Below, one piece after another: positions 5,918-62,676 of a stretch of 64,000 bases of DNA. The stretch comes from an uncultured Rhodospirillales bacterium. GTDB lineage: Bacteria; Pseudomonadota; Alphaproteobacteria; RF32; CAG-239. The notes below the pieces were generated by a model, which was given only the letters and a program-made list of their open reading frames with translations, searched no databases and was not told the DNA's origin. Made by a program: the position numbers and the translations under genes. Location of the stretch: positions 1,511 through 65,510 of the forward strand of contig CACYYO010000002.1 in the NCBI GenBank assembly GCA_902778645.1, read 5' to 3'. How positions within the stretch are numbered: the first letter of the stretch is position 1; every line of letters starts with the position of its first letter.

Positions 5918-6466
5918 ATGAAAAAGCCGCAAAGAACACGAAAATATTTTGCCCCGCAATCCGATAATACCGAGAGAAAATGCGATCACGAGGGCTGCCA
6001 AAAGGCAGGAATTTATCGTGCCCCGAAGGATAAAAGACTGAGAGAATATTATTGGTTTTGCTTGGAACATGTCCAAGAATATAACGCCAAATGGAATTAT
6101 TACGGGGATGCCGATACAGAAGAAGAATTAAATAACGCAAAAGCAAAAATGCACTTTAATGGTGGAAAGTCAAAAATCAAATACCGCTTTGGCGCAAAAT
6201 TTAAGGATTCTTTTGGTTTTTTCAGCGAATATGCCGAAGAATTTACATCTGCCGCACCGGAAACATTTTTTACCGCAGAGGAACGCGGGTGGATTCGCAC
6301 AATGGAGATGGATTTCAACGATTTGAGTATTGCCACACTCAAAAAACAATATAAAAAACTCGTCAAAAAATATCATCCCGATATTAATCGGGATGATAAA
6401 GATGCTGAAGAAAAGTTCAAGCAATTAACCAATGCCTATAGTGCCCTGCTGGCTAAACTGTCCTGA
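5918..6466 (+). CDS. J-domain co-chaperone-like protein with an N-terminal Cys/His zinc-binding region
   Basis: C-terminal J domain with the HPD motif (LKKQYKKLVKKYHPDINRDDKDAEEKFKQLTNAY). N-terminal CDHEGC...C..H cluster. Confidence 0.75.
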   Translation: MKKPQRTRKYFAPQSDNTERKCDHEGCQKAGIYRAPKDKRLREYYWFCLEHVQEYNAKWNYYGDADTEEELNNAKAKMHFNGGKSKIKYRFGAKFKDSFGFFSEYAEEFTSAAPETFFTAEERGWIRTMEMDFNDLSIATLKKQYKKLVKKYHPDINRDDKDAEEKFKQLTNAYSALLAKLS

Positions 6467-7292
6467 TGTTTTGTTCCTGCCGCCGCTGAAGAAGTTTCTT
6501 AAAACTGACTTTTGGCTCGGATACCCGATGCCTTTTTTTGCGGTGATGAGAATTTGGTTTTCTGCCGGTCTTTTTTAAGAGAAGTTGTGCTACCTTTTGG
6601 TCATCATTTTTGGTATTAGTAATATTAATAACATCATTAATTTTCATTCCTTGAACAGCGGAAAATCCGCCGATTTTTTGCAATCTTTTAATGCCTCTCA
6701 TCAAATCTTTTATCTTTTGATCATCAAGTTTTGCAAAACCGATCTTTATATCCGGCGCAACATTGTGTTTGATGGCCATTTCAAAAGTCTCTTTTCCCCA
6801 ACCGTTATTCTGCATATTTTCTGCAACATCTTGAGGAGACAAATTTCCAAGACCTGCTTTTTGGGCTAAACGATTTATCCGTGAAAGAGCGAACAGCTTA
6901 GAAGTATTTTGCTGATTTTGAATGTTTTGAGATGTTTGTTTTTGGTTTATAATCTGTTTTTCTTTTTCATTTAACCCCTGAAAAAGAGAGGTGTCTGACG
7001 CCTTGGTGTTATCCAAAAACAGTAAAGAATTATCAAAAACAAAACTATATTCTTCTTCATCTTCGTCGTCGTCATCTAAAGCTTCTTTTATTTTTTTTCG
7101 CATTTTTTTGAGATGAGAGCTGAAAGGCGCATTAATTTGCGAAGCAACGGAAGAAGACTTTGCGTTGGATTCTTTTGCTTTAATCTGTGCATATACATTT
7201 TGTTGCGCATCGAGATGCCGAGAGAGTCGTTCTTTCTTCCCGAAACTTTTTTTCTTCCACTCAATATTCGGATTCGTGGTTTCATTATCCAT
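6453..7292 (-). CDS. Hypothetical protein with an acidic stretch (DDDDEDEEE) and a Q/N-rich low-complexity region
   Basis: 279-aa ORF convergent with the J-domain gene, overlapping it by 14 nt. No domain recognised by eye. Confidence 0.45.
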   Translation of the reverse strand: MDNETTNPNIEWKKKSFGKKERLSRHLDAQQNVYAQIKAKESNAKSSSVASQINAPFSSHLKKMRKKIKEALDDDDEDEEEYSFVFDNSLLFLDNTKASDTSLFQGLNEKEKQIINQKQTSQNIQNQQNTSKLFALSRINRLAQKAGLGNLSPQDVAENMQNNGWGKETFEMAIKHNVAPDIKIGFAKLDDQKIKDLMRGIKRLQKIGGFSAVQGMKINDVINITNTKNDDQKVAQLLLKKTGRKPNSHHRKKRHRVSEPKVSFKKLLQRRQEQNIRTV

Positions 7293-7328
7293 ACCAAACC
7301 TCCATTAAATCTCCTCTAAAAGGCGTAG

Positions 7329-9053
7329 CTACTCTGCTTCTTTGCCAACATAACCGGATTGCTTGACAAGAGAGCAAACAACCATAATCGAATCATCAGA
7401 CAATAAAACAGAAAGAACATCTATCCTGATACCATCACTCCTTGTTAAACGGAAAGATTTTGTGCTTGCACTCATAAGGTGCGCAAGAATGTCCTCTTTG
7501 AGATCTTGCCAATTTTCAACATGAGCAAAGAAACGCTGTTGGTCATCTAAAACCTCGGCAATACTTGGCTCCTTTCTCAAAAACAACTCATCGGATTGCC
7601 AGAGCTTGAGATAGGCCTGATTAAATGCTTTTAAACGACCGTTAGAACCAAAGATAATGACGGCATCAAACAAATTATTAAGGATTTCATCTTGTACCTG
7701 TAATAAAGCGTTGTAAGCCTGTTGGGTAGCTAATCGGTCAGAAACATCTTCAAAAGCAAAAACAAGCCCCCCCATCGGATAAGGAGACCGCACGCGGCGA
7801 ATAGTGTTTCCGTTTGGCAGATGCAACAAATCTTCCTTAGGTTCAAGGATAGAGGTAAAGGCTTTTAATTCATCATTTTTATATTGTCTGAAATCAGGAA
7901 CTTCCGGCAACAATCTTTTTTCTCTAATGTTTTCAAGAAAAGAAGAGTATGATGGTGCCGATTCCAACCATTTACTTTCCTGCTTCCACAAAGAAACAAA
8001 AGCCTTGTTGTAAAAAGAAAGTTCGCCATGACTGTCGAAAACGGCAAAAGCAGTTCCCAGTGTGCCCAGAATTTCCAAATGAGCATTTTGATGAAGTTTC
8101 AAATCGCGCTTCAGATGATCAAGCTCGGTAATTTCGATTAATGAGCCGACAGTCCATATTTTATCAAGATACCCTTGCAGATGAAAAGGAGATTCGCAAA
8201 CCTCAAAAGAGCAGTGCTGTCCGTTTTTTATAAGGTTTTCATCTTGTTTTTGGGGGCGATTCAGGGCTTGAGCCTGAGCCGCCAAGGTTTTCGCAACACT
8301 TTTTCCGCCGACACTTAACAGTTCTATTTGTTGGCGAATGACATCGCTTTTACTGACGTTTTTAGTAAAATCAAGATATTTTTTGTTAATGACGACCAAA
8401 TTTTGTTGTTCATCGCGCAACCATGCCGGATAAGGGAGATTATCAATAATATCTTCTAATTGTTGAAAGCGCGTTTCCGCAACCTTTTTCTCATGCTCTA
8501 AATAAGAGATTCTTTGAACCTCCTCGCTGACATCACGAAACCAAATCATATCGCAATAGAGATTACCGTCGGTAGCATTAATCCTTGCACCGGCCAGATG
8601 CAGTTGCTTCGTACCGTTTTTTAGGCTGAAATTTTCATCGAATGAGACACCGTCTTCCCTCAGCAAAGCAAGATATTTTTGAATTTTCAGAACATCATCT
8701 TTGGCAAAACACTTCAAAACATCATTAAAAGAAGAAGACGTGCCTTGCGGTAAATTTAAGATAACCGCCAAACGCCGAGAACAGCGCTCTTTAACGTAAT
8801 TTTGAGGGTCATTAACTTTCTCGTCAGGGTAAATAAAAGCAAAATACCCGTCTTTTGAGGCGTAAAGCGTTTCAGCATAACGCTCACGATCACGGTTAAT
8901 AAAATAATTTTTCTGCGTCAGTTTTAGAACTCTGATTTGCGAATAAACAAGCATACTCAGCAATACAACAAAAACCGCAAATAGGATATACCATAATTCC
9001 GGTGCGGCATAAAACATGTCCAATAAGAGTTCTTTATTCATTTTTTTTGCCAC
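7329..9053 (-). CDS. Membrane-anchored multi-PAS sensor protein. No HisKA or HATPase kinase domain is present.
   Basis: N-terminal TM helix (LWYILFAVFVVLLSMLVY) followed by repeated PAS-like modules (..LDKIWTVGSLIEITELD.., ..FDAVIIFGSNGRLKAFNQAYLKLW..). The ORF ends without a kinase core. Confidence 0.55.
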   Translation of the reverse strand: MAKKMNKELLLDMFYAAPELWYILFAVFVVLLSMLVYSQIRVLKLTQKNYFINRDRERYAETLYASKDGYFAFIYPDEKVNDPQNYVKERCSRRLAVILNLPQGTSSSFNDVLKCFAKDDVLKIQKYLALLREDGVSFDENFSLKNGTKQLHLAGARINATDGNLYCDMIWFRDVSEEVQRISYLEHEKKVAETRFQQLEDIIDNLPYPAWLRDEQQNLVVINKKYLDFTKNVSKSDVIRQQIELLSVGGKSVAKTLAAQAQALNRPQKQDENLIKNGQHCSFEVCESPFHLQGYLDKIWTVGSLIEITELDHLKRDLKLHQNAHLEILGTLGTAFAVFDSHGELSFYNKAFVSLWKQESKWLESAPSYSSFLENIREKRLLPEVPDFRQYKNDELKAFTSILEPKEDLLHLPNGNTIRRVRSPYPMGGLVFAFEDVSDRLATQQAYNALLQVQDEILNNLFDAVIIFGSNGRLKAFNQAYLKLWQSDELFLRKEPSIAEVLDDQQRFFAHVENWQDLKEDILAHLMSASTKSFRLTRSDGIRIDVLSVLLSDDSIMVVCSLVKQSGYVGKEAE

Positions 9054-23269: not shown

Positions 23270-24688
23270 ATGTATGATTTTCTATTTTGGGGTAAAAAGC
23301 AAGTGTTAAAAAAAATATCGTCTGTTTTTATTGTTTTAGGTCTGTGCGCCTGTGCCTCACGCGGTATCAGAACGACAGGGGGGCAAAATGAACTCTATAC
23401 GGAGACAAACGAGATAAACGTTGTTCGTCATGATGATTTTAGGGTAGGTGTCTTGTTGCCTTTGAGCGGCGAGTTTTCCAAGCAAGGGAACGGGCTCAAA
23501 AATGCGACCATGATGGCAATGGATGACATCAATGACAGTGGTCTTGTTTTGCAATATTATGATACTAAAGGAACGCCGGAAGGTGCCTCAATTGCTATTG
23601 AAAATGCACTTAACCAAGGTGCACAAATGATAATCGGCCCAATGTTGAGTTCGTCTGTCCAAGCGATTACCCCGGCAGCCAAGAGTAGCGGTGTTCCTGT
23701 CATTGCGTTTAATTCTGCCTCAGAGGTCTTGCAAGATGGCATTTATACAATGGGTCTGCTTTTAGATGAGCAGGTTGACAGAGTGATGACCTATAGTGTG
23801 CAACAAGGCAGAACACGCTTCGGTATATTGGTACCGGATAATAATACCGGTATAGCCGTTGCCCGTGCAGCGGTTAAATCTGCAGCCAAAAATGGTGCGG
23901 CGGTCACGACAATTGCCTTTTATAAACCGGGGACAACCGATTTTACGGACGTGCTGAAGTCCATGACTAACTATTCGAGCCGCTCGTCAAGACTGAATCA
24001 GATGAAAGCACAGTATAAGTCTCAGGCTGCCGCCGGAAATGCCGAGGCAACAAGAATGATGAATAAACTGAACAAGCTGGATAGCTACGGCGATGTTGGA
24101 TTCGATGCTGTGCTGATTCCGGATTATGGCGCAACCCTAAAATCAGCAGTTGCCATGTTTGGTTATTATGATGTTTTCTCTCCGGAGATTAAGTTTATAG
24201 GAACCTCTATTTGGGAGAATACCAGTCTCAATAAAGAATCAACCATGCGCGGTAGCTGGTATCCGTCGTTATCTCGGCAGAACAATACCTATTTTATAAA
24301 CAAATATACGGAGCTGTTTGGCGAGCGCCCCTCAAGCTTGTATTCTCTGGGGTATGATGCAGTAGCTCTTGCATCAGCAATCTCACGCAGCGGTACAGAT
24401 AATTTGGATTATAAAATCACCAATCCCGAAGGATATTTGGGCGTTAACGGCGTTTTCCGCTTCTTTAATAACGGCTACAATCAACATAGTCTGGACATCA
24501 GAGAAGTCCGTGATAGCGGAACCTATATTGTTGACGCCGGACCTCGTAAATTTACAACCGATACCGGTTTAGTCGGTGGAGATATTATTCCATCCCAACG
24601 ACCGGCAATTTACGGGAAAAATCCGGCAACGGCAGAAGCTTTGATTTTCGGGCAGCCTCTGTCTCAAGAAGTTGTGACTGTCTATTAG
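23270..24688 (+). CDS. Periplasmic binding-fold lipoprotein, LpoA/LppC-like (penicillin-binding protein activator family)
   Basis: Lipoprotein-like signal (VLGLCACAS). Type-I periplasmic binding fold motifs (GVLLPLSGEFSKQGNGLKNATMMAMDDIN). It is transcribed divergently from rsmI with yraN adjacent, matching the E. coli rsmI / lpoA-yraN neighbourhood. Confidence 0.65.
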   Translation: MYDFLFWGKKQVLKKISSVFIVLGLCACASRGIRTTGGQNELYTETNEINVVRHDDFRVGVLLPLSGEFSKQGNGLKNATMMAMDDINDSGLVLQYYDTKGTPEGASIAIENALNQGAQMIIGPMLSSSVQAITPAAKSSGVPVIAFNSASEVLQDGIYTMGLLLDEQVDRVMTYSVQQGRTRFGILVPDNNTGIAVARAAVKSAAKNGAAVTTIAFYKPGTTDFTDVLKSMTNYSSRSSRLNQMKAQYKSQAAAGNAEATRMMNKLNKLDSYGDVGFDAVLIPDYGATLKSAVAMFGYYDVFSPEIKFIGTSIWENTSLNKESTMRGSWYPSLSRQNNTYFINKYTELFGERPSSLYSLGYDAVALASAISRSGTDNLDYKITNPEGYLGVNGVFRFFNNGYNQHSLDIREVRDSGTYIVDAGPRKFTTDTGLVGGDIIPSQRPAIYGKNPATAEALIFGQPLSQEVVTVY

Positions 24689-45121: not shown

Positions 45122-45156
45122 GAACCGCCGACAATGAAAAGTCCGCGGTTTTTTTT
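45122..45156 (+). terminator. Rho-independent terminator after the GH13 gene
   Basis: aaccgccgac..gtccgcggtt hairpin with one mismatch, followed by tttttttt. Confidence 0.5.
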
Positions 45157-46249
45157 ACGCCCTATCAAAATTAATTCGCGGGTCAACCAGAGAGTAGGTT
45201 ATATCACTGATAAGCTTCAGGACTAACCCCAAAAGAGCAAATATATAAAGTGTCCCGAAAATGACCGGATAATCACGGGTCATAATCGCTTCATAACCGA
45301 GCAGCCCCATACCATTGAGTGAAAAAATAACTTCAATCAGCAAAGAACCGGTAAATAACATTTTAATCAAAAGCGCAGGGAATCCTGCAATGACGATAAG
45401 CATGGCATTTCTGAAAACATGCCCGTAAAGGACTTGATTTTCGGTCAATCCTTTTGCTTTGGCGGTTAACACGTAAGGTTTATTAATTTCATCTAAAAAG
45501 GAGTTCTTTGTCAGCATGGTCAAGCTGGCAAAACCGCCGATAACCATAGCGATAACCGGTAGGGTGATATGCCAAAAATAGTCTCCGATTTTTCCTAAAA
45601 CAGAAAGATTATCCCAGTTGTCAGAGGTTAATCCTCGTAAAGGAAACCACTGGAAATAAATTCCGCCGGCAAACAAAACAATCAAAAAAACAGCAAATAA
45701 AAATACAGGGATAGCCGCCCCGATGACAATAGCAAAAGACGTCCAGACATCAAAAGAGCTACCGTCTCTTACCGCTTTTCTTATACCCAGAGGGATAGCT
45801 ATTAAATAAATAAGCAAAGTCGACCATAGTCCCAATGAAATTGAAACCGGCATTCTTTCTTTAATAAGTTGCCAAACGGTTTTGTTGTGGTAAAAACTTT
45901 GCCCGAAATCAAAGGTAGCATACTCTTTTACCATCTTAAGAAAACGAATATGAGCCGGTTTATCAAAGCCAAACTGTTTTTCCAAGGCTTTCACCAAATC
46001 TTCCGGAACACCCTGTGCACCTTGATATTTATTCTGTTGCGCAGTAGTCATATTAACTTGAGTTGTAGAACTGAGGGATGACTTTGCATCTGTATTCATC
46101 CCTTGGTACTTGGCAAGCATATATTCAACCGGACCGCCCGGAGCCAGTTGGATAATCACAAAGTTCAAAAACAAAATGCCGAGTAACGTCAGAGGAATAA
46201 GAAGAAGTCGCTTTAAAATATAATTTCTCATTTTGCCTCTTTCATCCAC
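45155..46249 (-). CDS. yejB: ABC transporter permease, YejB/OppB family (peptide / microcin C-type)
   Basis: Six TM helices and the ABC permease EAA-like region. The N-terminus MRNYILKRLLLIPLTLLGILFLNFVIIQLAPGGP is typical OppB/YejB. Confidence 0.85.
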   Translation of the reverse strand: MDERGKMRNYILKRLLLIPLTLLGILFLNFVIIQLAPGGPVEYMLAKYQGMNTDAKSSLSSTTQVNMTTAQQNKYQGAQGVPEDLVKALEKQFGFDKPAHIRFLKMVKEYATFDFGQSFYHNKTVWQLIKERMPVSISLGLWSTLLIYLIAIPLGIRKAVRDGSSFDVWTSFAIVIGAAIPVFLFAVFLIVLFAGGIYFQWFPLRGLTSDNWDNLSVLGKIGDYFWHITLPVIAMVIGGFASLTMLTKNSFLDEINKPYVLTAKAKGLTENQVLYGHVFRNAMLIVIAGFPALLIKMLFTGSLLIEVIFSLNGMGLLGYEAIMTRDYPVIFGTLYIFALLGLVLKLISDITYSLVDPRINFDRA

Positions 46250-55066: not shown

Positions 55067-56170
55067 ATGATTAGAAAATATTTTATATGCTCTACGTTTA
55101 TTTTAGCTTTTATAACATTTATAAGACCGGTACACGCGGATATTGCACTAAACGATTCTAGTATATCCCTTGCAAAGGGTGAAGTCATCGCAAAAAAAGT
55201 TGAAAAAAATCACGCTTACATAAAATTAGCCGGAGCTAGATGGATTCTCGATGAGGAAGAAGATCAAGATGCCCTGGTTTTTGAGAAAGATAATCTTTTT
55301 CCTGAAATCACAGCTAATTGTAAAAGTGTAAAAAATGGTATGGGCAAAAAGTTTTCTTATATTCAAAAATGTAGCGCATGCCAGGAGGGATATGAACTCA
55401 ACGCCGATGGCATATGTGCGGAAAAAAAGTGTGAGGGATATAACAGCCCGACGGAAGAAATAGAAGGATGTGAAGTTGTTGAACCTTGCCAAAAGGGAAA
55501 GAATTTTGTGTACAAATGTGAGACATGTCTTACAGGATACAAGATAACAGATAAATACCTGTGTCAGGTAGATGATTGTGAGAATTACCCTCTTGATGCA
55601 AGGGAAGATGTAAATAATTGTAAAGAAGCCCCTATTTCCTGCAATAAAGGACAACATGTTTACTATGGTTGTCCGGAGGATAAATGTGATGCTGGATTTA
55701 AGTGGAAAAAAGGTTTTTGCGATACTATCACATGTGGTGCCGATTTTTCTTTAGACAGTTGCCCTAAGAATGGCAATTGCGAACTTTGTCAAAGTGGACG
55801 CTATTATAAGAAGTATAAGCTTAATTCTTGCTCTTCGGGATATATGGTAAAAGATAACAGTTGCGTTAAAACATCTGGAGCATTAGCATTTACAATGGCA
55901 ACAAAACAGAATACCCAAGAGGTTGTCCTATCGGTACAAGGTGAATGCACCATTGATTGGGGAGACGGAATTGTTGAAAATCATAACACGGGTGAAAACA
56001 TAGGTAATGACGTATCTCATGTTTACAAAACACCAGGCAATTACAATGTGCGTATTACCGGTGAACCGACCGGTGTATCCATAAAATCAGGACGAGAATA
56101 TATAACAGATGTCTCAGATACTTCTCTTTCAACCATAAATAAATATGATGATATTTTTTCAAATGATTAG
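55067..56170 (+). CDS. Secreted cysteine-rich repeat protein (EGF/furin-like CxxC...GY repeats)
   Basis: Signal peptide MIRKYFICSTFILAFITFIRPVHA, followed by at least six Cys-rich repeats (C.AC.EGYELNADGIC, CETCLTGYKITDKYLC, CELCQSGRYY...). Confidence 0.55.
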   Translation: MIRKYFICSTFILAFITFIRPVHADIALNDSSISLAKGEVIAKKVEKNHAYIKLAGARWILDEEEDQDALVFEKDNLFPEITANCKSVKNGMGKKFSYIQKCSACQEGYELNADGICAEKKCEGYNSPTEEIEGCEVVEPCQKGKNFVYKCETCLTGYKITDKYLCQVDDCENYPLDAREDVNNCKEAPISCNKGQHVYYGCPEDKCDAGFKWKKGFCDTITCGADFSLDSCPKNGNCELCQSGRYYKKYKLNSCSSGYMVKDNSCVKTSGALAFTMATKQNTQEVVLSVQGECTIDWGDGIVENHNTGENIGNDVSHVYKTPGNYNVRITGEPTGVSIKSGREYITDVSDTSLSTINKYDDIFSND

Positions 56171-56618: not shown

Positions 56619-58529
56619 TTATTTGACTTCTTCAAAATCAGCATCAACAACTTTTTCATCGCCATTGCCGGCAGATTGATTTTCTGCACCCTGAGCGCTG
56701 GCACCGGCAGCTCCGGCCTCCGGAGCAGCTTGCTTATACATAGCCTCACCGAGTTTGAGAGAAGCTTGCATCAAAGCCTCTGTCTTTTCTTTAATAGCGT
56801 TGGCATCATCACCTTCAGCAGCCTTCTTCAAAGCTTCTATGGCAGACTCAATCGCAGATTTTTCAGCAGCGCTGACTTTATCGCCATGCTCTTTCAACGT
56901 TTTTTCGGTGGCATGAACTAAGCCTTCTGCCTGATTCTTTGCCTCAACCAATTCTTTCTTTTGCTTATCAGCCTGAGCATTAGCCTCAGCGTCTTTAACC
57001 ATTTTTTCGATATCAGCATCGCTTAAGCCGCCGCTGGCCTGAATACGAATAGCTTGCTCCTTGTTGGTCGCTTTATCTTTAGCAGAAACATTAACAATAC
57101 CATTCGCATCAATATCAAACGTGACTTCAATTTGCGGCATACCGCGTGGTGCCGGCGGAATACCGACCAAATCGAATTGACCGAGCAGTTTATTGTCTTG
57201 AGCCATTTCACGCTCACCTTGGAAAACACGAATAGTAACGGCAGTCTGCCCATCTTCTGCCGTTGAGAAGACTTGGGATTTACGGGTTGGAATGGTGGTA
57301 TTACGATCAATCAAACGAGTGAATACACCGCCTAATGTTTCAATACCCAAAGATAACGGCGTAACATCAAGCAACAACACGTCTTTGACATCACCCATCA
57401 AAACGCCACCCTGAATAGCCGCACCGACAGCCACAACTTCATCAGGGTTAACACCTTTGTGAGGCTCTTTACCGAAGATTTCTTTAACTTTTTCTTGAAC
57501 CTTCGGCATACGTGTCATACCACCGACCAAAATAACTTCGCTGATTTCACTGGCTTTAATACCGGCATCAGCTAATGCCTTGCGGCATGGCTCAACCGTA
57601 CGTTCAATCAAATCTTCAACCAAAGATTCCAATTTAGCACGCGTTAATTTGATATTTAAGTGTTTCGGACCGGTTGCGTCAGCCGTAATAAACGGTAAAT
57701 TAATATCGGTTTGGGTAACGGATGATAATTCAATCTTAGCTTTTTCTGCCGCTTCTTTCAAACGTTGCAAAGCCAAACGATCATTTTTCAAGTCGATACC
57801 GGATTCCTTCTTGAATTCATCAGTCAAATAAGTAACCAAGCGTTGGTCAAAGTCTTCACCGCCGAGGAACGTATCACCGTTCGTGGATTTAACTTCAAAC
57901 ACGCCGTCACCGATTTCCAAAATAGAAATATCGAAAGTACCACCACCAAGGTCATAAACCGCGATTGTCCCGTTAGCTTTCTTGTCCATACCATAGGCCA
58001 AGGCAGCAGCCGTCGGCTCATTGATAATACGCAAAACGTCCAAACCGGCAATTTTACCGGCATCTTTTGTCGCCTGACGCTGAGAGTCATTAAAATATGC
58101 CGGAACGGTAATAACGGCTTTTTCGACCTTTTCACCGAGATAGCTTTCAGCATACTCTTTAATCTTTTGCAAAACGATAGCAGAAATTTGTGACGGAGCA
58201 TATTTATCGCCCTTAACTTCGACCCACGCATCGCCGTTATCGCCATTGATAATTTTGAACGGAACTAAAGCCTTATCTTTAGCGACTTCCGGAGAATCAA
58301 AACGACGCCCGATTAAACGCTTAATGGCAAACAAGGTATTCTCAGGGTTTGTTACAGCTTGGCGCTTTGCCGGAAAACCGACCAAGCGTTCATCATCTGT
58401 AAAAGCAACCATAGACGGGGTTGTTCTGGCGCCTTCGCTGTTTTCCAAAACTTTCGGATCTTTGCCTTCCATAATGGCAAAGCAAGAGTTTGTGGTACCT
58501 AAGTCAATACCGATAACTTTATTACTCAT
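56619..58529 (-). CDS. dnaK: molecular chaperone DnaK (Hsp70)
   Basis: [16 protein letters not shown]..., DLGGGTFD and other Hsp70 signatures. 636 aa. Confidence 0.97.
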
Positions 58530-58574
58530 AATTTTTGTCCTTTAGTAATTAATACAAATCAATTTCTACAAACT

Positions 58575-58603
58575 ATATAGGGAGCCGAAAGAGCGAGTGC
58601 AAG
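58575..58603 (-). promoter_or_regulatory. Sigma32 (RpoH)-like heat-shock promoter candidate for dnaK
   Basis: Minus-strand reading CTTGCA-ctcgctctttcgg-CTCCCTATAT, compared with the consensus CTTGAA-N13-15-CCCCATNT. About 45 nt upstream of the dnaK ATG. Confidence 0.35.
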
Positions 58604-58953
58604 TTTTAAAAGCAAAAAAAATGAAATATTTTTCATTATTTGACATTTGTAGAAAAATAAAAATGAAAGCATCTTTTGACTATTTAGAACTCTCAAAAAT
58701 AAGATAATGAACGGAATCAGCAAACTGATAGATTATAAAATTATGAAACTTATTAACATAAATATATATGTAATTTATTGAATTTTCAAAGTAAATATAT
58801 AAAGAAGAATTGTTTTTATAACAAATATTGATATTTATAACAAAATATGATAATAATATATATGCGCGTTTATAACATTTTATAAAAAAAGAATAAATTG
58901 CGCATCGTATTAAATTTTTTGAAAGGAATTAATTAAAATAAGGAGAAACGAAA

Positions 58954-59067
58954 ATGTCAGGAGAAACGTTTGACATCTTAAACAGTATTTTTAGTGGTCA
59001 AAAGCCATTAAGAAGAACTAATCCGAAAGTAGGAGAAGTATTATTATGTTGTACCGGGGCAAAATGA
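58954..59067 (+). other. 37-codon upstream ORF with a strong SD (aaggagaaacgaaaATG), ending 10 nt before and out of frame with the SAA-like ORF
   Basis: MSGETFDILNSIFSGQKPLRRTNPKVGEVLLCCTGAK*. The downstream ORF frame is open from GQNDWTSLNDVKTV..., so a +1 shift near ccggggcaaaatg would fuse them. Confidence 0.3.
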
Positions 59068-59077
59068 TTGGACTTCA

Positions 59078-59716
59078 TTGAATGATGTTAAAACAGTCGA
59101 TGTTCCATCAGCTGATACACCAAACCCGTATTTGCAACCGCAAAATACTGTTTTCGGTCAACCAACGCAATTTGCACAGAATAATATGCAAGCGAATGAT
59201 ATGTATAATGATTATCCAAATTTAAGAGATGATAAAAGGGATTTTTTCAAATCTGCAGTTGAAAGCGTCGTAAAAGCGATCCCTTCGTCTTTTGAACGCA
59301 ATAATCCTTTAACGCAATCATTAGGGGCGGCAAGAGACTTGGGTGAAAACTATATAAATATGGTCAATGCCAATCTTAAAAGTTCTAAGGATATGTCTAC
59401 CCAAGGAACAACCTCGGATAATTATTACCATTGCTTAGGTAATTATAATGCAGCTAGTCGGGGAGATTATGGAGCTAAAACAGCGGAAATTATTGGTAAT
59501 ACACGAGAAATAGCTGATTGGGGAATAAATTGGCTTTTTAAGGATAAACCAATTTCACAAGCAAATGCTGATTTCAAAAATGATAGAGCCGTTAACTTAG
59601 ATGGTCGGAATATGGCTCAAAGCGGGCAATATAACTCAGCATGGGATGCTTGTGAAAAATATCGCCCTAAACAATACGATCCTAACGAGCGCTTGTATTA
59701 TTACCATAAATATTAA
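59078..59716 (+). CDS. Serum amyloid A (SAA)-like domain protein
   Basis: NYYHCLGNYNAASRGDYGAKTAEIIGNTREIADW parallels the vertebrate SAA core [33 protein letters not shown]. The tail ...YRPKQYDPNERLYYYHKY parallels SAA ...HFRPAGLPEKY. Confidence 0.55.
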   Translation: MNDVKTVDVPSADTPNPYLQPQNTVFGQPTQFAQNNMQANDMYNDYPNLRDDKRDFFKSAVESVVKAIPSSFERNNPLTQSLGAARDLGENYINMVNANLKSSKDMSTQGTTSDNYYHCLGNYNAASRGDYGAKTAEIIGNTREIADWGINWLFKDKPISQANADFKNDRAVNLDGRNMAQSGQYNSAWDACEKYRPKQYDPNERLYYYHKY

Positions 59717-59789
59717 AATTAGACTTGAATTAATAAGAAATTATTTTTAAACTCTATCAAATAGAAGAGTGTTAATATAGGAAATCACG

Positions 59790-60551
59790 ATGGAAGATAA
59801 TTCATATATTTATTTTCTTTTAGGATTAATGTTCTGTTTCAGTCAAATATATCTTTATTTTCGACGAGAAATATTAAAAAGCATAAAAACAAACATAAAA
59901 TATTATGATAGTATATGTTGTTTTCTTTTGGGATTATTTGCTCTCAACATATTAACACTCTTTTCTGTCTTTTACAATATTATAACATTTATTATCTTTT
60001 TTAGCTGGTTAGATTGGGTTCTGTACAAAAACGATCCTCAACATCAGCTATGGTGGCATCAGTTGACAAAAGGTAATTATTTTTATTTAAGCGTCATTAT
60101 TTTTACTTTTATAGGGCTTTTTCTTCAACATAAGTTTTACCTTTTTTCAAGTACATTAATTTGCACAATGATTCTATTATTTGGTTTTTTCTGGAAAAGA
60201 ATAAAACAACAGAAAAAAATAGGGTTATTTATAGATAGTCGGAACGTTGGGAGCAAAATAATCAATTGGATAGGAAATTTTATTCATAATATATTTTATT
60301 ATACTTATCAAACAGGCGTTATTTTCTTTTTTTTATTTTTACTTTTCAGAATCATTCTTTTACCCGTCATTGACCCGCTAGATGTCGATAGCTGCCTAGA
60401 CGGCTATTTCTGCAAAGAAGGCAATAGTTTTGATGATTGTGGTGACGGGAAGCCTTGTGTCATAACAAAAGAATACTGTCTTGAACATAATTATAAATGG
60501 ATAGAGCAACTTCGTAGTTGCGATATGAGTGGGGAAGTTCACAAACTCTAA
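59790..60551 (+). CDS. Polytopic membrane protein (about 6 TM helices) with a Cys-rich C-terminal tail. Very AT-rich.
   Basis: Hydrophobic helices throughout. C-terminus DSCLDGYFCKEGNSFDDCGDGKPCVITKEYCLEHNYKW. Confidence 0.5.
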   Translation: MEDNSYIYFLLGLMFCFSQIYLYFRREILKSIKTNIKYYDSICCFLLGLFALNILTLFSVFYNIITFIIFFSWLDWVLYKNDPQHQLWWHQLTKGNYFYLSVIIFTFIGLFLQHKFYLFSSTLICTMILLFGFFWKRIKQQKKIGLFIDSRNVGSKIINWIGNFIHNIFYYTYQTGVIFFFLFLLFRIILLPVIDPLDVDSCLDGYFCKEGNSFDDCGDGKPCVITKEYCLEHNYKWIEQLRSCDMSGEVHKL

Positions 60552-60598
60552 TAGCATTAAACATTCAAAAACCGGAGAAAGCTTTTTATCCTTGAATA

Positions 60599-60634
60599 AC
60601 AAAAAAAACGCTCCGAACTAATCTGTCCGGAGCG
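60599..60634 (-). terminator. Rho-independent terminator downstream of rpsA
   Basis: On the minus strand: cgctccggacagattagttcggagcg followed by tttttttt. Confidence 0.55.
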
Positions 60635-60658
60635 CCGTTAACGATAAAACAGCTAAAC

Positions 60659-62344
60659 TTAAGCTTTTTTCTTCAAAGCTTTGCCCAAGGCATCGCCTAA
60701 AGCTGAGTTAGAAGAGTCAGTATTAGAATATTCTTCTAAAGCTTTCTTTTCTTCATCAATCTCGCGAGCCTTAACAGACAAGCCGATTTTAACATTCTTC
60801 TTATCTACGGAAGTAACTTTAGCTTCCAAAACATCGCCTTCTTTATAGTTGTCGAGGTTTTGGTTAGCTTTATCCTTAGACAAGTCGGCTTTCTTAATAT
60901 TAGCCGTCAAACCATTGACATCAACAACGACACCTTTGTCTTCAACAGCCGTAATGGTTGCTTTAACAATGTCGCCTTTTTTGATGTTTTCTAAAGCGCC
61001 GGTAACAGCTTCTTCGCTTAATTGCTTAATGCCGAGACTGATACGCTCTTTTTCAACATCAACGTCGATGATTTTGGCTTGAATATCTTGACCTTTGGTG
61101 TAGTCCTTAACGGCTTCTTCACCGGCCTTATCCCAAGAGATATCAGACAGGTGAATCATACCGTCGATTTCGTCGCTCAAACCAACAAACAAACCGAACT
61201 CGGTAATGTTTTTGATTTTACCTTCAATAACAGATCCGACCGGATGCTCTTCAATATAAGCAGCCCAAGGATTCGGTGTGCATTGTTTGATACCCAAAGA
61301 GATACGACGTTTTTCCGGATCAACTTCCAAAACCTTAACTTCAACTTCTTGAGAAGTAGAAACGATTTTGCCCGGATGAACATTTTTACGTGTCCAGCTC
61401 ATTTCAGAGACGTGAACCAGACCTTCAATACCGTCTTCTAATTCAACGAATGCGCCGTAATCGGTAATGTTGGTAACTTTACCTTTGCAAACATCGCCGA
61501 CAGCGAACTTATTAGCAACTTCTTGCCATGGGTCACTTTCGAGTTGTTTCATACCCAAGCTGATACGTTGATTATCTTCATTGAACTTGATAACCTGAAC
61601 TTTAACGGTCTGACCGACAGACAAAACTTCTGCAGGGTGATTAATACGTTTCCAAGAAATATCGGTAACGTGTAACAAACCGTCAACGCCGCCCAAATCA
61701 ATGAATGCGCCGTAATCGGTAATGTTTTTAACAACACCCTCGAGAACAGAACCTTCTTTGATATCGCCGATCAATTCAGCGCGAGCTTCAGCGCGTGTTT
61801 CTTCCAAGACAACACGGCGAGAAACAACGATATTGCCTCTGACCTTGTCCATTTTCAAAATTTGGAACGGCTGAGAAATACCCATTAAAGGAGTAATGTC
61901 TCTGATAGGACGAATGTCGATTTGAGAGCCGGGCAGGAAAGCGATTGCCCCATTCAAATCAACCGTAAAGCCGCCTTTAACGCGACCAAAAATAACACCG
62001 TTAACGCGTTCGCCGGAGTTCAGGCATTTCTCTAAGTCTTGCCATACTTCTTCACGGCGTGCTTTTTCACGAGACAGAACAATCAAACCGTCTTTGTCTT
62101 CATATCTGTCAACATAAACTTCAATCTTGTCGCCAACATTGAGTTCAGGGTTTTGACCGAATTCACGAAGCGGAATACGACCTTCAGATTTCAACCCGAC
62201 ATCAACCATAGCGAAATCAGGTGTTAAACGAATAACAGTTCCTTTAACAACAGAACCGGTTAAAGAATTATCCCCGAACTGTTCGTTCAAAAGTTCGGCA
62301 AAGTTTTCGGTTGTTTCAGGAATTTTAAATTCAGCGTTTGTCAT
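60659..62344 (-). CDS. rpsA: 30S ribosomal protein S1
   Basis: Six S1 RNA-binding repeats. The true start is MTNAEFKIPETTENFAELL at 62342-62344. Confidence 0.95.
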   Translation of the reverse strand: MTNAEFKIPETTENFAELLNEQFGDNSLTGSVVKGTVIRLTPDFAMVDVGLKSEGRIPLREFGQNPELNVGDKIEVYVDRYEDKDGLIVLSREKARREEVWQDLEKCLNSGERVNGVIFGRVKGGFTVDLNGAIAFLPGSQIDIRPIRDITPLMGISQPFQILKMDKVRGNIVVSRRVVLEETRAEARAELIGDIKEGSVLEGVVKNITDYGAFIDLGGVDGLLHVTDISWKRINHPAEVLSVGQTVKVQVIKFNEDNQRISLGMKQLESDPWQEVANKFAVGDVCKGKVTNITDYGAFVELEDGIEGLVHVSEMSWTRKNVHPGKIVSTSQEVEVKVLEVDPEKRRISLGIKQCTPNPWAAYIEEHPVGSVIEGKIKNITEFGLFVGLSDEIDGMIHLSDISWDKAGEEAVKDYTKGQDIQAKIIDVDVEKERISLGIKQLSEEAVTGALENIKKGDIVKATITAVEDKGVVVDVNGLTANIKKADLSKDKANQNLDNYKEGDVLEAKVTSVDKKNVKIGLSVKAREIDEEKKALEEYSNTDSSNSALGDALGKALKKKA

Positions 62345-62676
62345 AAATAAATATATTTCAAAAAATGCCAACCCGAGCTTATTGAATCAACACAATAAAA
62401 GCCCCTTTGCGGGCGGACTTGCACGAGGTTAATGTCTGATATAGCGTGCCCTATCCTCACCAGACCAGCTGTTTATACCACTATCTTTTTATTTTTCAAG
62501 CATTTTCTTTCAAAAATCGTGATTTTTATCAGCTTTTTCTAAATTTGTAGACAAAGAAAGAAATATATGGTAAATTAAAATTAAAATTCGCCTTGTAAAA
62601 TTAAGAGACAATGGAACTTGTGAGGGAATCTGGAGCAAATCTTAAAAAACTCAGAATGGCTGATTAAGAGGAATGT

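Follow-up and report, generated by a model that had tools for sequence, protein, structure and literature searches.

Why does a gut bacterium carry a gene for a protein that resembles vertebrate serum amyloid A (SAA)? SAA is among the most strongly induced acute-phase proteins, and its molecular activity is still debated. The question arises from a 64,000-nt stretch of contig CACYYO010000002.1 from an uncultured Rhodospirillales bacterium, hereafter the window. It contains two open reading frames (ORFs) on the plus strand, 59078-59716 and 59790-60551, flanked on the minus strand by dnaK (56619-58529) and rpsA (60659-62371). An original prediction, made from the letters of the window, described this islet as encoding an SAA-like protein and a Cys-tailed polytopic membrane protein, possibly as host-derived or horizontally acquired mimicry. 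We consider it likely that the islet is instead a cassette of two genes, toxin and immunity, that belongs to a polymorphic toxin system and has inserted between the dnaK and rpsA genes of an uncultured rumen alphaproteobacterium, and that the toxin gene of this copy is frameshifted.

The similarity to SAA is well founded. ORF 59078-59716 matched the Pfam SAA family (PF00277) with an E-value of 9.7e-14 and 52.1 bits, above the gathering cutoff of 30.8, and the match placed ORF residues 80-186 (nt 59315-59635) on profile positions 6-94 of 102. In the PDB, chains of SAA were found at an E-value of about 5e-5 with the ORF sequence and of 1.5e-10 with the family profile. A structure was modelled with AlphaFold on the intact form of the protein (P0029), which, apart from the called start residue, does not differ from the window ORF over their 212 common residues. 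The model (mean predicted local distance difference test score, pLDDT, 77) consists of four long helices and a short fifth helix. In a Foldseek search of the PDB, its six best matches were all mouse SAA3 or human SAA1 with a probability of 1.00, and the TM-scores on the SAA targets were from 0.67 to 0.83. Because the model superposes on SAA, the similarity spans the helices and the conserved polar residues and extends beyond low-complexity stretches, to which, as the original prediction had allowed, it might have been restricted.

The domain has the same four-helix fold as vertebrate SAA (SAA1 and SAA3; PDB 4ip8, 4q5g and 6py0), together with the stretch (D/N)YxHxxGNYxAAxRG...ARE and the later motif D...N..GR. 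However, the vertebrate protein is about 104 residues long, carries a signal peptide, is secreted and associates with high-density lipoprotein (HDL), and has no module like the N-terminal one described below, no linked immunity gene and no known enzymatic activity. Conversely, 10 residues are inserted ahead of helix 2 in the bacterial domain, its loop from helix 3 to helix 4 is longer, and it contains a pair of Cys residues.

Burroughs, Nicastro and Aravind (eLife 2025, PMC12419801) described the Lipocone superfamily, in which prok-SAA is a polymorphic-toxin tip and the bacterial progenitor of animal SAA. Bacterial homologs are more than the rarities that had been supposed; the consulted parts of that paper report 195 prok-SAA loci, in 75 of which Imm-SAA lies downstream, and the table entry for prok-SAA reads 'T6SS, MuF; TM+[TM+TM+]Imm-SAA'. 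The signature given there is a His in helix 2, a Glu in helix 3, an Asp in helix 4, the motif sNxxGR and a short fifth helix. Every one of these features is present in the window protein, namely His118, Glu144, Asp169, VNLDGR and a short helix after helix 4 (residues 231-238 of the P0029 model), as expected for the Lipocone SAA-Wnt clade. In an alignment of 25 sequences (A3), the His, Glu, Asp, Asn and second Cys were invariant and the first Cys nearly so; in another of 11 sequences (A2), the four polar residues and both Cys were all invariant. Within the V-N-L-D-G-R motif the Asn is invariant, and the Gly and Arg differ in some homologs. Furthermore, the prok-SAA source data of the same paper, as far as consulted, list two members of this subfamily, MBP3545783.1 and MBR1649114.1 (the sequence of the latter is that of P0042). 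Since close relatives are listed as Prok-SAA, the family motifs are present and a putative Imm-SAA gene lies downstream, the pair, as judged from its sequence, is a new member of a published kind of toxin-immunity system; the concept of an SAA-fold toxin has already been published.

The ORF as annotated is only part of a gene. It does encode the SAA domain, but it is merely the downstream portion of a toxin gene that starts at ATG 58954, upstream of the annotated TTG start, and encodes 255 amino acids; a 5-nt deletion lies between the two starts. Intact homologs start with MSGETFDIL at the position of ATG 58954. In the window, the frame from this ATG (MSGETFDILNSIFSGQKPLRRTNPKVGE...) runs for 37 codons to a TGA at 59065-59067, and the SAA frame is open from 59033; tblastn placed residues 1-28 of the N-terminal module in one frame and residues 30-84 in another. 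Thus, the window copy has no uninterrupted frame from the family start codon. The window and another assembly of the same locus (L001) are 99.9% identical over 5062 nt, with the 5 nt as the sole gap, and P0029, encoded on a third contig of 136 kb, is exactly the 255-residue product of the restored frame; both of these other assemblies carry the intact toxin gene. In the metagenome-assembled genome (MAG) RGIG4793 (L021), the toxin copy has an in-frame stop, by a CAA-to-TAA change, and the partner gene is intact. The toxin has thus been inactivated twice independently with the immunity gene left intact, and the second case makes a true loss of the toxin plausible. In the window, because of the frameshift, only the immunity gene is likely to be functional. 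Toxin genes with the same N-terminal module are often broken in MAGs where the small downstream genes are intact, as in L021 (6001-6747, the in-frame TAA) and as split ORFs in L031 (3916-4915), L034 (5995-6675) and L036 (5990-6888).

The first part of the restored protein is, as in a polymorphic toxin, a constant region of about 84 residues (the N-module). Its identity is 78-90% among proteins whose C-termini are of at least four unrelated kinds (P0014-P0024). An N-module profile searched against 1.84 billion cluster representatives gave 153 matches, nearly all starting within the first 25 residues. When 106 of these 153 were scanned with Pfam, the C-terminal tips were SAA (14), GH108 (13), MuF (11), Tlde1 (10) and PG_binding_3 (6), and more rarely a VgrG3-like C-terminus (3), phage lysozyme (3), YkuD (3), SLT (1) and pesticin (1). 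All of these tips are directed at the cell envelope. A tip of the P0016 type gave an hhalign probability of 64% and an E-value of 6e-5 against SAA/Lipocone, which is suggestive of a distant relative of that superfamily. In the model, the N-module is a small helix-plus-hairpin unit (residues 1-60), in which residues 2-14 are helical and 31-34 and 49-52 form strands, with block-mean pLDDT values of 68-84 over residues 11-60 and a disordered linker (64-86) behind it. The module had no match in Pfam, NCBIfam or PHROG and is also absent from the text and tables examined of PMC12419801. A Foldseek search of BFVD viral structures gave no match below an E-value of 0.8. In the toxin as a whole, Pfam, NCBIfam, PHROG and N-terminal hydrophobicity revealed no recognised secretion or delivery domain (RHS, PAAR, LXG, MuF or signal peptide); in particular, there is no hydrophobic N-terminal signal, a feature that the original prediction had proposed to check. 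Two other candidates were discarded. The 'Broken-hairpin' trafficking domain of PMC12419801 lies C-terminal to toxin domains in the description consulted, and a double-glycine leader at 'IFSG|Q' was dropped, as only the Gly is conserved and the residue before it varies. All of the 20 genomic loci recovered came from uncultured alphaproteobacterial or proteobacterial MAGs of rumen or gut.

The clearest evidence for a toxin with its immunity gene is that a tip has been exchanged at this very locus. The same dnaK-rpsA locus in another strain (L013) aligns to window 58556-59199 (90% identity) and 59776-60834 (96.5%); the 830 nt between the aligned blocks are unrelated to the window, and the six-transmembrane (6-TM) Cys-tail gene is kept. 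L013 is therefore a displacement of the tip cassette that has left an orphan immunity gene, and a constant N-terminus with variable C-terminal tips is seen here at a single site. Tandem toxin cassettes were found in L021 and L041. Two metagenome contigs (L002 and L003) both begin at window 59204, the boundary of module and tip, which is expected if the N-module is a repeat that breaks assemblies. In four contigs from human or mouse gut MAGs (L033, L035, L037 and L039, about 5980-7930 in each), a lysozyme-like protein begins with the N-module, and downstream of it two secreted proteins of 155-168 residues that contain Cys are encoded in tandem, probably by duplicated immunity genes.

The second gene of the islet encodes, as had been proposed, a Cys-tailed membrane protein, with about six hydrophobic segments by hydropathy and six Cys in the tail. 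These are spaced C-x5-C-x8-C-x5-C-x6-C-x13-C and are invariant in homologs. The tail is predicted to face the periplasm, by a topology derived from the positive-inside rule. The AlphaFold model of this protein, built with five close sequences, had a pLDDT of 46, too low for a comparison of folds; homologs of the window type are few. The pairing with the SAA gene, which the original prediction had treated as one unit, is seen across loci: homologs of the 6-TM Cys-tail protein follow SAA tips with other N-termini or at other loci (L014, L016, L024, L029 and L041). Because the gene follows SAA tips regardless of N-terminus and locus, its product is most likely the immunity protein of the SAA toxin. 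By synteny, then, an immunity gene lies downstream of the toxin; it was retained after the swap in L013, and an extra copy is present in L027. Paralogs of the toxin lie at different chromosomal sites among housekeeping genes, each followed by a small gene with no Pfam match on record, and the type of partner tracks the tip. SAA-like tips are followed by proteins with three to six TM segments, often Cys-tailed; a tip with a weak GH108 and endolysin match is followed by a lipoprotein; and a lysozyme-like tip (assigned by reading, not by a scan) is followed by two tandem secreted proteins. In L027 (5237-7177), an N-module toxin has an SAA tip that is closer to vertebrate SAA than that of the window (35% identity over 94 residues to human SAA1); a 3-TM Cys-tail gene and then the extra window-type 6-TM Cys-tail gene come after it. 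Natural variants of the toxin (window and P0003 versus P0002 and P0004) diverge mainly in the loop between helices 3 and 4 (59501-59580), and partner proteins (window versus P0026) vary mainly in TM4-TM5 (60078-60194), with the Cys tail constant. The two variable regions may determine specificity.

Together, these features suggest how the system might work. The intact toxin of 255 residues would consist of the N-module, a disordered linker rich in Gln, Asn and Pro, and the C-terminal prok-SAA domain of SAA fold. The N-module of about 84 residues, which lacks a signal peptide, is presumably responsible for export or delivery. TelC, so far the one Lipocone toxin to have been tested, serves as the analogy for the SAA domain, whose predicted action is the removal of phosphate-linked head groups from lipid carriers, such as lipid II, at the periplasmic face of a rival cell's inner membrane. 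The 6-TM protein would display its disulfide-rich tail in the periplasm, where this protein most likely neutralises the toxin. Recombination at the junction of module and tip would exchange tips together with their own immunity genes, and the old immunity genes would be kept.

Comparison with known systems is consistent with this proposal, with some differences. The window pair shares with prok-SAA/Imm-SAA, as described in the consulted parts of PMC12419801, the domain family and the arrangement of two genes, of which the downstream one encodes a TM-anchored protein stabilised by Cys (in the window partner, about six hydrophobic segments come before the tail), and MuF is named there among the delivery systems of that family. 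However, the window toxin has neither RHS nor a Pfam-detectable MuF domain but only the N-module, and this copy is frameshifted. TelC-TipC of Streptococcus intermedius (TelC is a lipid II phosphatase) belongs to the same superfamily according to that paper and is the template for the predicted chemistry. It also acts outside the cytoplasm, where an extracytoplasmic immunity protein neutralises it. On the other hand, TelC is of another clade and is exported by type VII secretion via an LXG domain from a Gram-positive host, and TipC is unrelated to the 6-TM Cys-tail protein. As to the Lipocone chemistry itself, the parts consulted present cleavage of lipid head groups as shown only for TelC and PTDSS1/2. 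Colicin M and pesticin are functional analogs only: they are small, without signal peptide, with an N-terminal uptake region, a domain at the C-terminus directed against lipid II or peptidoglycan, and an envelope-located immunity protein. No homology to these periplasm-acting bacteriocins was detected. A match to klebicin G (9hn1), with an E-value of 0.036 for the single sequence, disappeared with the family profile and was treated as chance, and the resemblance of 'KTVDVPS..PNPY' to a TonB box as in colicin M was a mere impression and was not used.

Several points weigh against the toxin-immunity explanation. The toxicity, the lipid substrate and the immunity function are drawn from analogy and synteny, and the immunity mechanism, the topology and the delivery route are likewise deduced. 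Imm-SAA, as described in the parts of PMC12419801 consulted, has an alpha-helix, four beta-strands and four absolutely conserved Cys in a 'TM+[TM+TM+]' arrangement, whereas the window partner has six TM segments and six Cys. No secretion system was seen near any chromosomal locus, and no secretion signal is recognisable in the toxin. The low content of guanine and cytosine (GC) of the immunity gene is partly due to its composition rich in Phe, Ile, Leu, Asn and Lys, rather than to foreign origin. Finally, the frameshift is known from the assembled sequence and could be an error of assembly or sequencing.

The way in which the toxin reaches its target may be connected with phages. The MuF core motif YYIWRT..D.KVR..H directly follows the N-module in 11 cluster representatives by Pfam and 12 by motif. 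On one phage contig (L019), an N-module and MuF-type head protein with a lysozyme-like C-terminus is encoded next to the terminase, with portal and major head genes close by. In L018, a gene for N-module and Tlde1 has head, tail and virion genes around it; N-module genes also lie directly behind a portal gene in L032 and ahead of the major head gene in L091. A second scan of viral contigs, with an alignment of N-module plus MuF, found the same phage contig only. These observations are suggestive of a link between the N-module and phage heads. Jamet et al. (2017, PMC5576092) described MuF polymorphic toxins, which likewise have a constant N-terminal region, variable C-terminal toxins and immunity genes. 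However, 96% of the MuF genes in that study were prophage-associated, whereas N-module genes, even two copies with N-module plus MuF, sit among housekeeping genes; furthermore, the window protein and P0029 have no Phage_Mu_F match (PF04233), and the core occurs only in related N-module proteins. One possibility, which we put forward tentatively and regard as rather unlikely, is that the N-module is a so far undescribed delivery domain derived from the N-terminus of a divergent MuF head protein, and loads small toxins that target the cell wall or lipid carriers, with genes scattered over the chromosome, in trans into phage capsids or capsids like those of gene-transfer agents, for injection into the periplasm of cells nearby. 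The phages in question would be those infecting gut Alphaproteobacteria, and the particle would be a resident phage or resemble a gene-transfer agent. If true, this would be particle-mediated bacterial warfare without the MuF core or a prophage context.

The same observations could be read in another way, in which N-module proteins are virion lysins, that is, ejection or head proteins for crossing the cell wall, and the chromosomal copies are decaying prophage remnants. The genes beside terminase, portal and head genes in L019, L018, L032 and L091 would fit this, as would the many tips that are typical lysin domains and the frequent disruption of N-module genes. We nevertheless consider it improbable. 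In 19 of the 20 genomic loci, no similarity to phage structural proteins of the L018 and L019 type, the only queries used, was found within 6 kb. Of the five N-module plus MuF loci on longer contigs without phage matches, two are annotated, and both lie among housekeeping genes. Each kind of tip has its matching membrane or periplasmic gene, and old ones are kept after a swap, which is the signature of toxin and immunity. In addition, dispersed copies share a promoter and a 5' untranslated region (UTR), and an SAA domain that cleaves lipid head groups would have no obvious role in genome injection. N-module plus MuF toxins among housekeeping genes are those of L057 (7992-9158, with Lnt, TruA and HisRS) and L053 (1058-2230, with an ABC-F protein); a further one lies at 124-1179 of L055.

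A role in the cell's own envelope, in which the SAA-fold and 6-TM proteins recycle or remodel a lipid carrier or bind lipid, seems very unlikely to us. It is true that many Lipocone families serve normal lipid, peptidoglycan or polysaccharide metabolism according to the parts of PMC12419801 consulted, and that vertebrate SAA3 binds retinol (PDB 6py0). However, a patchy, strain-variable distribution, replacement of the cassette at the same locus, and toxin genes that have become pseudogenes in two MAGs speak against it; the N-module is common to muramidase, lysozyme and Tlde1 tips, and the SAA/Wnt clade is predicted in the same source to be soluble and deployed in conflicts.

Least credible is the proposal that the gene was acquired from an animal and that its product imitates SAA to bind HDL or host receptors or to modulate immunity: the organism does inhabit rumen or gut, the fold and core motifs are those of vertebrate SAA and the islet is AT-rich relative to its flanks, but the nearest relatives are all bacterial (45-87% identity, in Alphaproteobacteria of the rumen and gut), the best local alignment with human SAA1 is of 67 residues at 37%, the protein has no signal peptide, its SAA domain is fused to a bacterial and phage N-module and exchanged with tips that degrade peptidoglycan, it is tightly linked to an immunity-type membrane protein, the toxin is broken in two MAGs with the partner gene kept, and the transfer inferred in the consulted parts of PMC12419801 is from bacteria to Metazoa. 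A word-based homolog search with the SAA profile gave 29 proteins, all close relatives of at least 45% identity, and found no bridge to other bacterial or animal SAA sequences.

Returning to the toxin-immunity cassette, the base composition and the leader agree with the description of an AT-rich, apparently mobile islet. The GC content is 0.408 in the window, 0.445 in dnaK and 0.414 in rpsA, as compared with 0.208 in the leader, 0.36-0.37 in the toxin gene and 0.29 in the membrane gene; the spacer ahead of the two ORFs is 424 nt long with 21% GC. We share the view that the islet looks horizontally mobile. The leader repeats noted earlier (TTTATAACA) are present: copies of TTATAACA lie at 58816, 58835 and 58870, and the whole window has 7 as against 3.4 expected, which is weak by count alone. 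However, the block TTATAACA(T/A)AT(C/A)TTGATA is conserved ahead of the paralogous toxin genes of L004, L011, L013 and L021, where it is followed by about 17-18 nt, a -10-like box and a 5' UTR ending in TAAGGAGAAA..ATG. Promoter-like sites in the region are no commoner than chance, so the support for the putative promoter (Table 1) comes from the conservation of its position in the paralog loci. It is reasonable to suppose that the dispersed copies share a promoter and perhaps a regulator site. The 10-mer AGGAGAAACG occurs twice, at 58941-58950 (the ribosome-binding site) and at 58959-58968 (toxin codons 2-5). The inverted repeat AATGAAA-TATT-TTTCATT, which had been counted as part of the leader, is present at 58620-58637 but is unremarkable in DNA of 21% GC and lies on the dnaK side. 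Upstream of dnaK, at about 58570-58604 on the minus strand, there is a heat-shock-type promoter (CTTGCA, 15 nt, CCCTATATA), which we take to be RpoH/sigma-32-like. Because the repeat lies just upstream of this promoter, its association may be with dnaK and not with the toxin gene.

Table 1. Features of the dnaK-rpsA islet (positions in the window)
Feature	Position	Strand	Remarks
Three TT(T)ATAACA repeats in the AT-rich leader	58815..58877	+	First copy directly upstream of the -35 box
Putative sigma-70-like promoter of the toxin-immunity pair	58828..58857	+	TTGATA, 18 nt, AATAAT; best regional score, 10/12
Ribosome-binding site AGGAGAAACG and true start ATG 58954	58941..58956	+	TAAGGAGAAA..ATG invariant in six paralog loci
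N-terminal module, about 84 residues	58954..59204	+	Common to many toxins with different tips; split by the frameshift in the window
5-nt deletion site	59037..59038	+	Intact GGAGAAAGCGAGTATT, window GGAGAAGTATT
Annotated ORF, 212 residues from TTG; 3' remnant of the toxin gene	59078..59716	+	End of the N-module, disordered linker, SAA-fold domain
Exchangeable tip cassette	59200..59775	+	L013 has a different tip and its own 152-residue multi-TM gene here
Predicted active-site residues of the SAA/Lipocone domain	59429..59608	+	Conserved in homolog alignments; putative catalytic role
His118	59429-59431	+	Predicted active site (ORF numbering)
Glu144	59507-59509	+	Predicted active site (ORF numbering)
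Asp169	59582-59584	+	Predicted active site (ORF numbering)
Motif V-N-L-D-G-R	59591-59608	+	Corresponds to the family sNxxGR motif
Two conserved Cys	59432-59434; 59651-59653	+	From homolog alignments
Candidate immunity gene, 253 residues	59790..60551	+	Six predicted TM segments, 59802-60371; Cys-rich tail, 60372-60548
GC-rich hairpin between the convergent immunity gene and rpsA	60607..60636		Terminator-like site, scored on the minus strand

Elsewhere in the window, an AT-rich ORF of 367 residues (55067-56170, plus strand) has an N-terminus resembling a signal peptide and many Cys that recur as C..C..GY..C, with a weak, sub-threshold PKD match at residues 296-333 and a faint PHROG match. Exact look-up gave no record for the window protein 45155-46249 or for P0001, and only housekeeping genes for 23270-24688.

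The idea of the SAA fold as a lipid-carrier enzyme comes from the Lipocone paper of 2025, not from the window. What this locus adds is a clean natural exchange of a tip cassette at a single site of the chromosome, the recurrent loss of a toxin whose immunity gene persists, and a promoter shared among dispersed copies. It also adds an unnamed N-module, which is common among Alphaproteobacteria of the rumen and gut as well as in their phages and which may represent a new route of delivery. A compact SAA-fold toxin with its immunity partner would offer a simple genetic test of whether the fold is a lipid-carrier enzyme.

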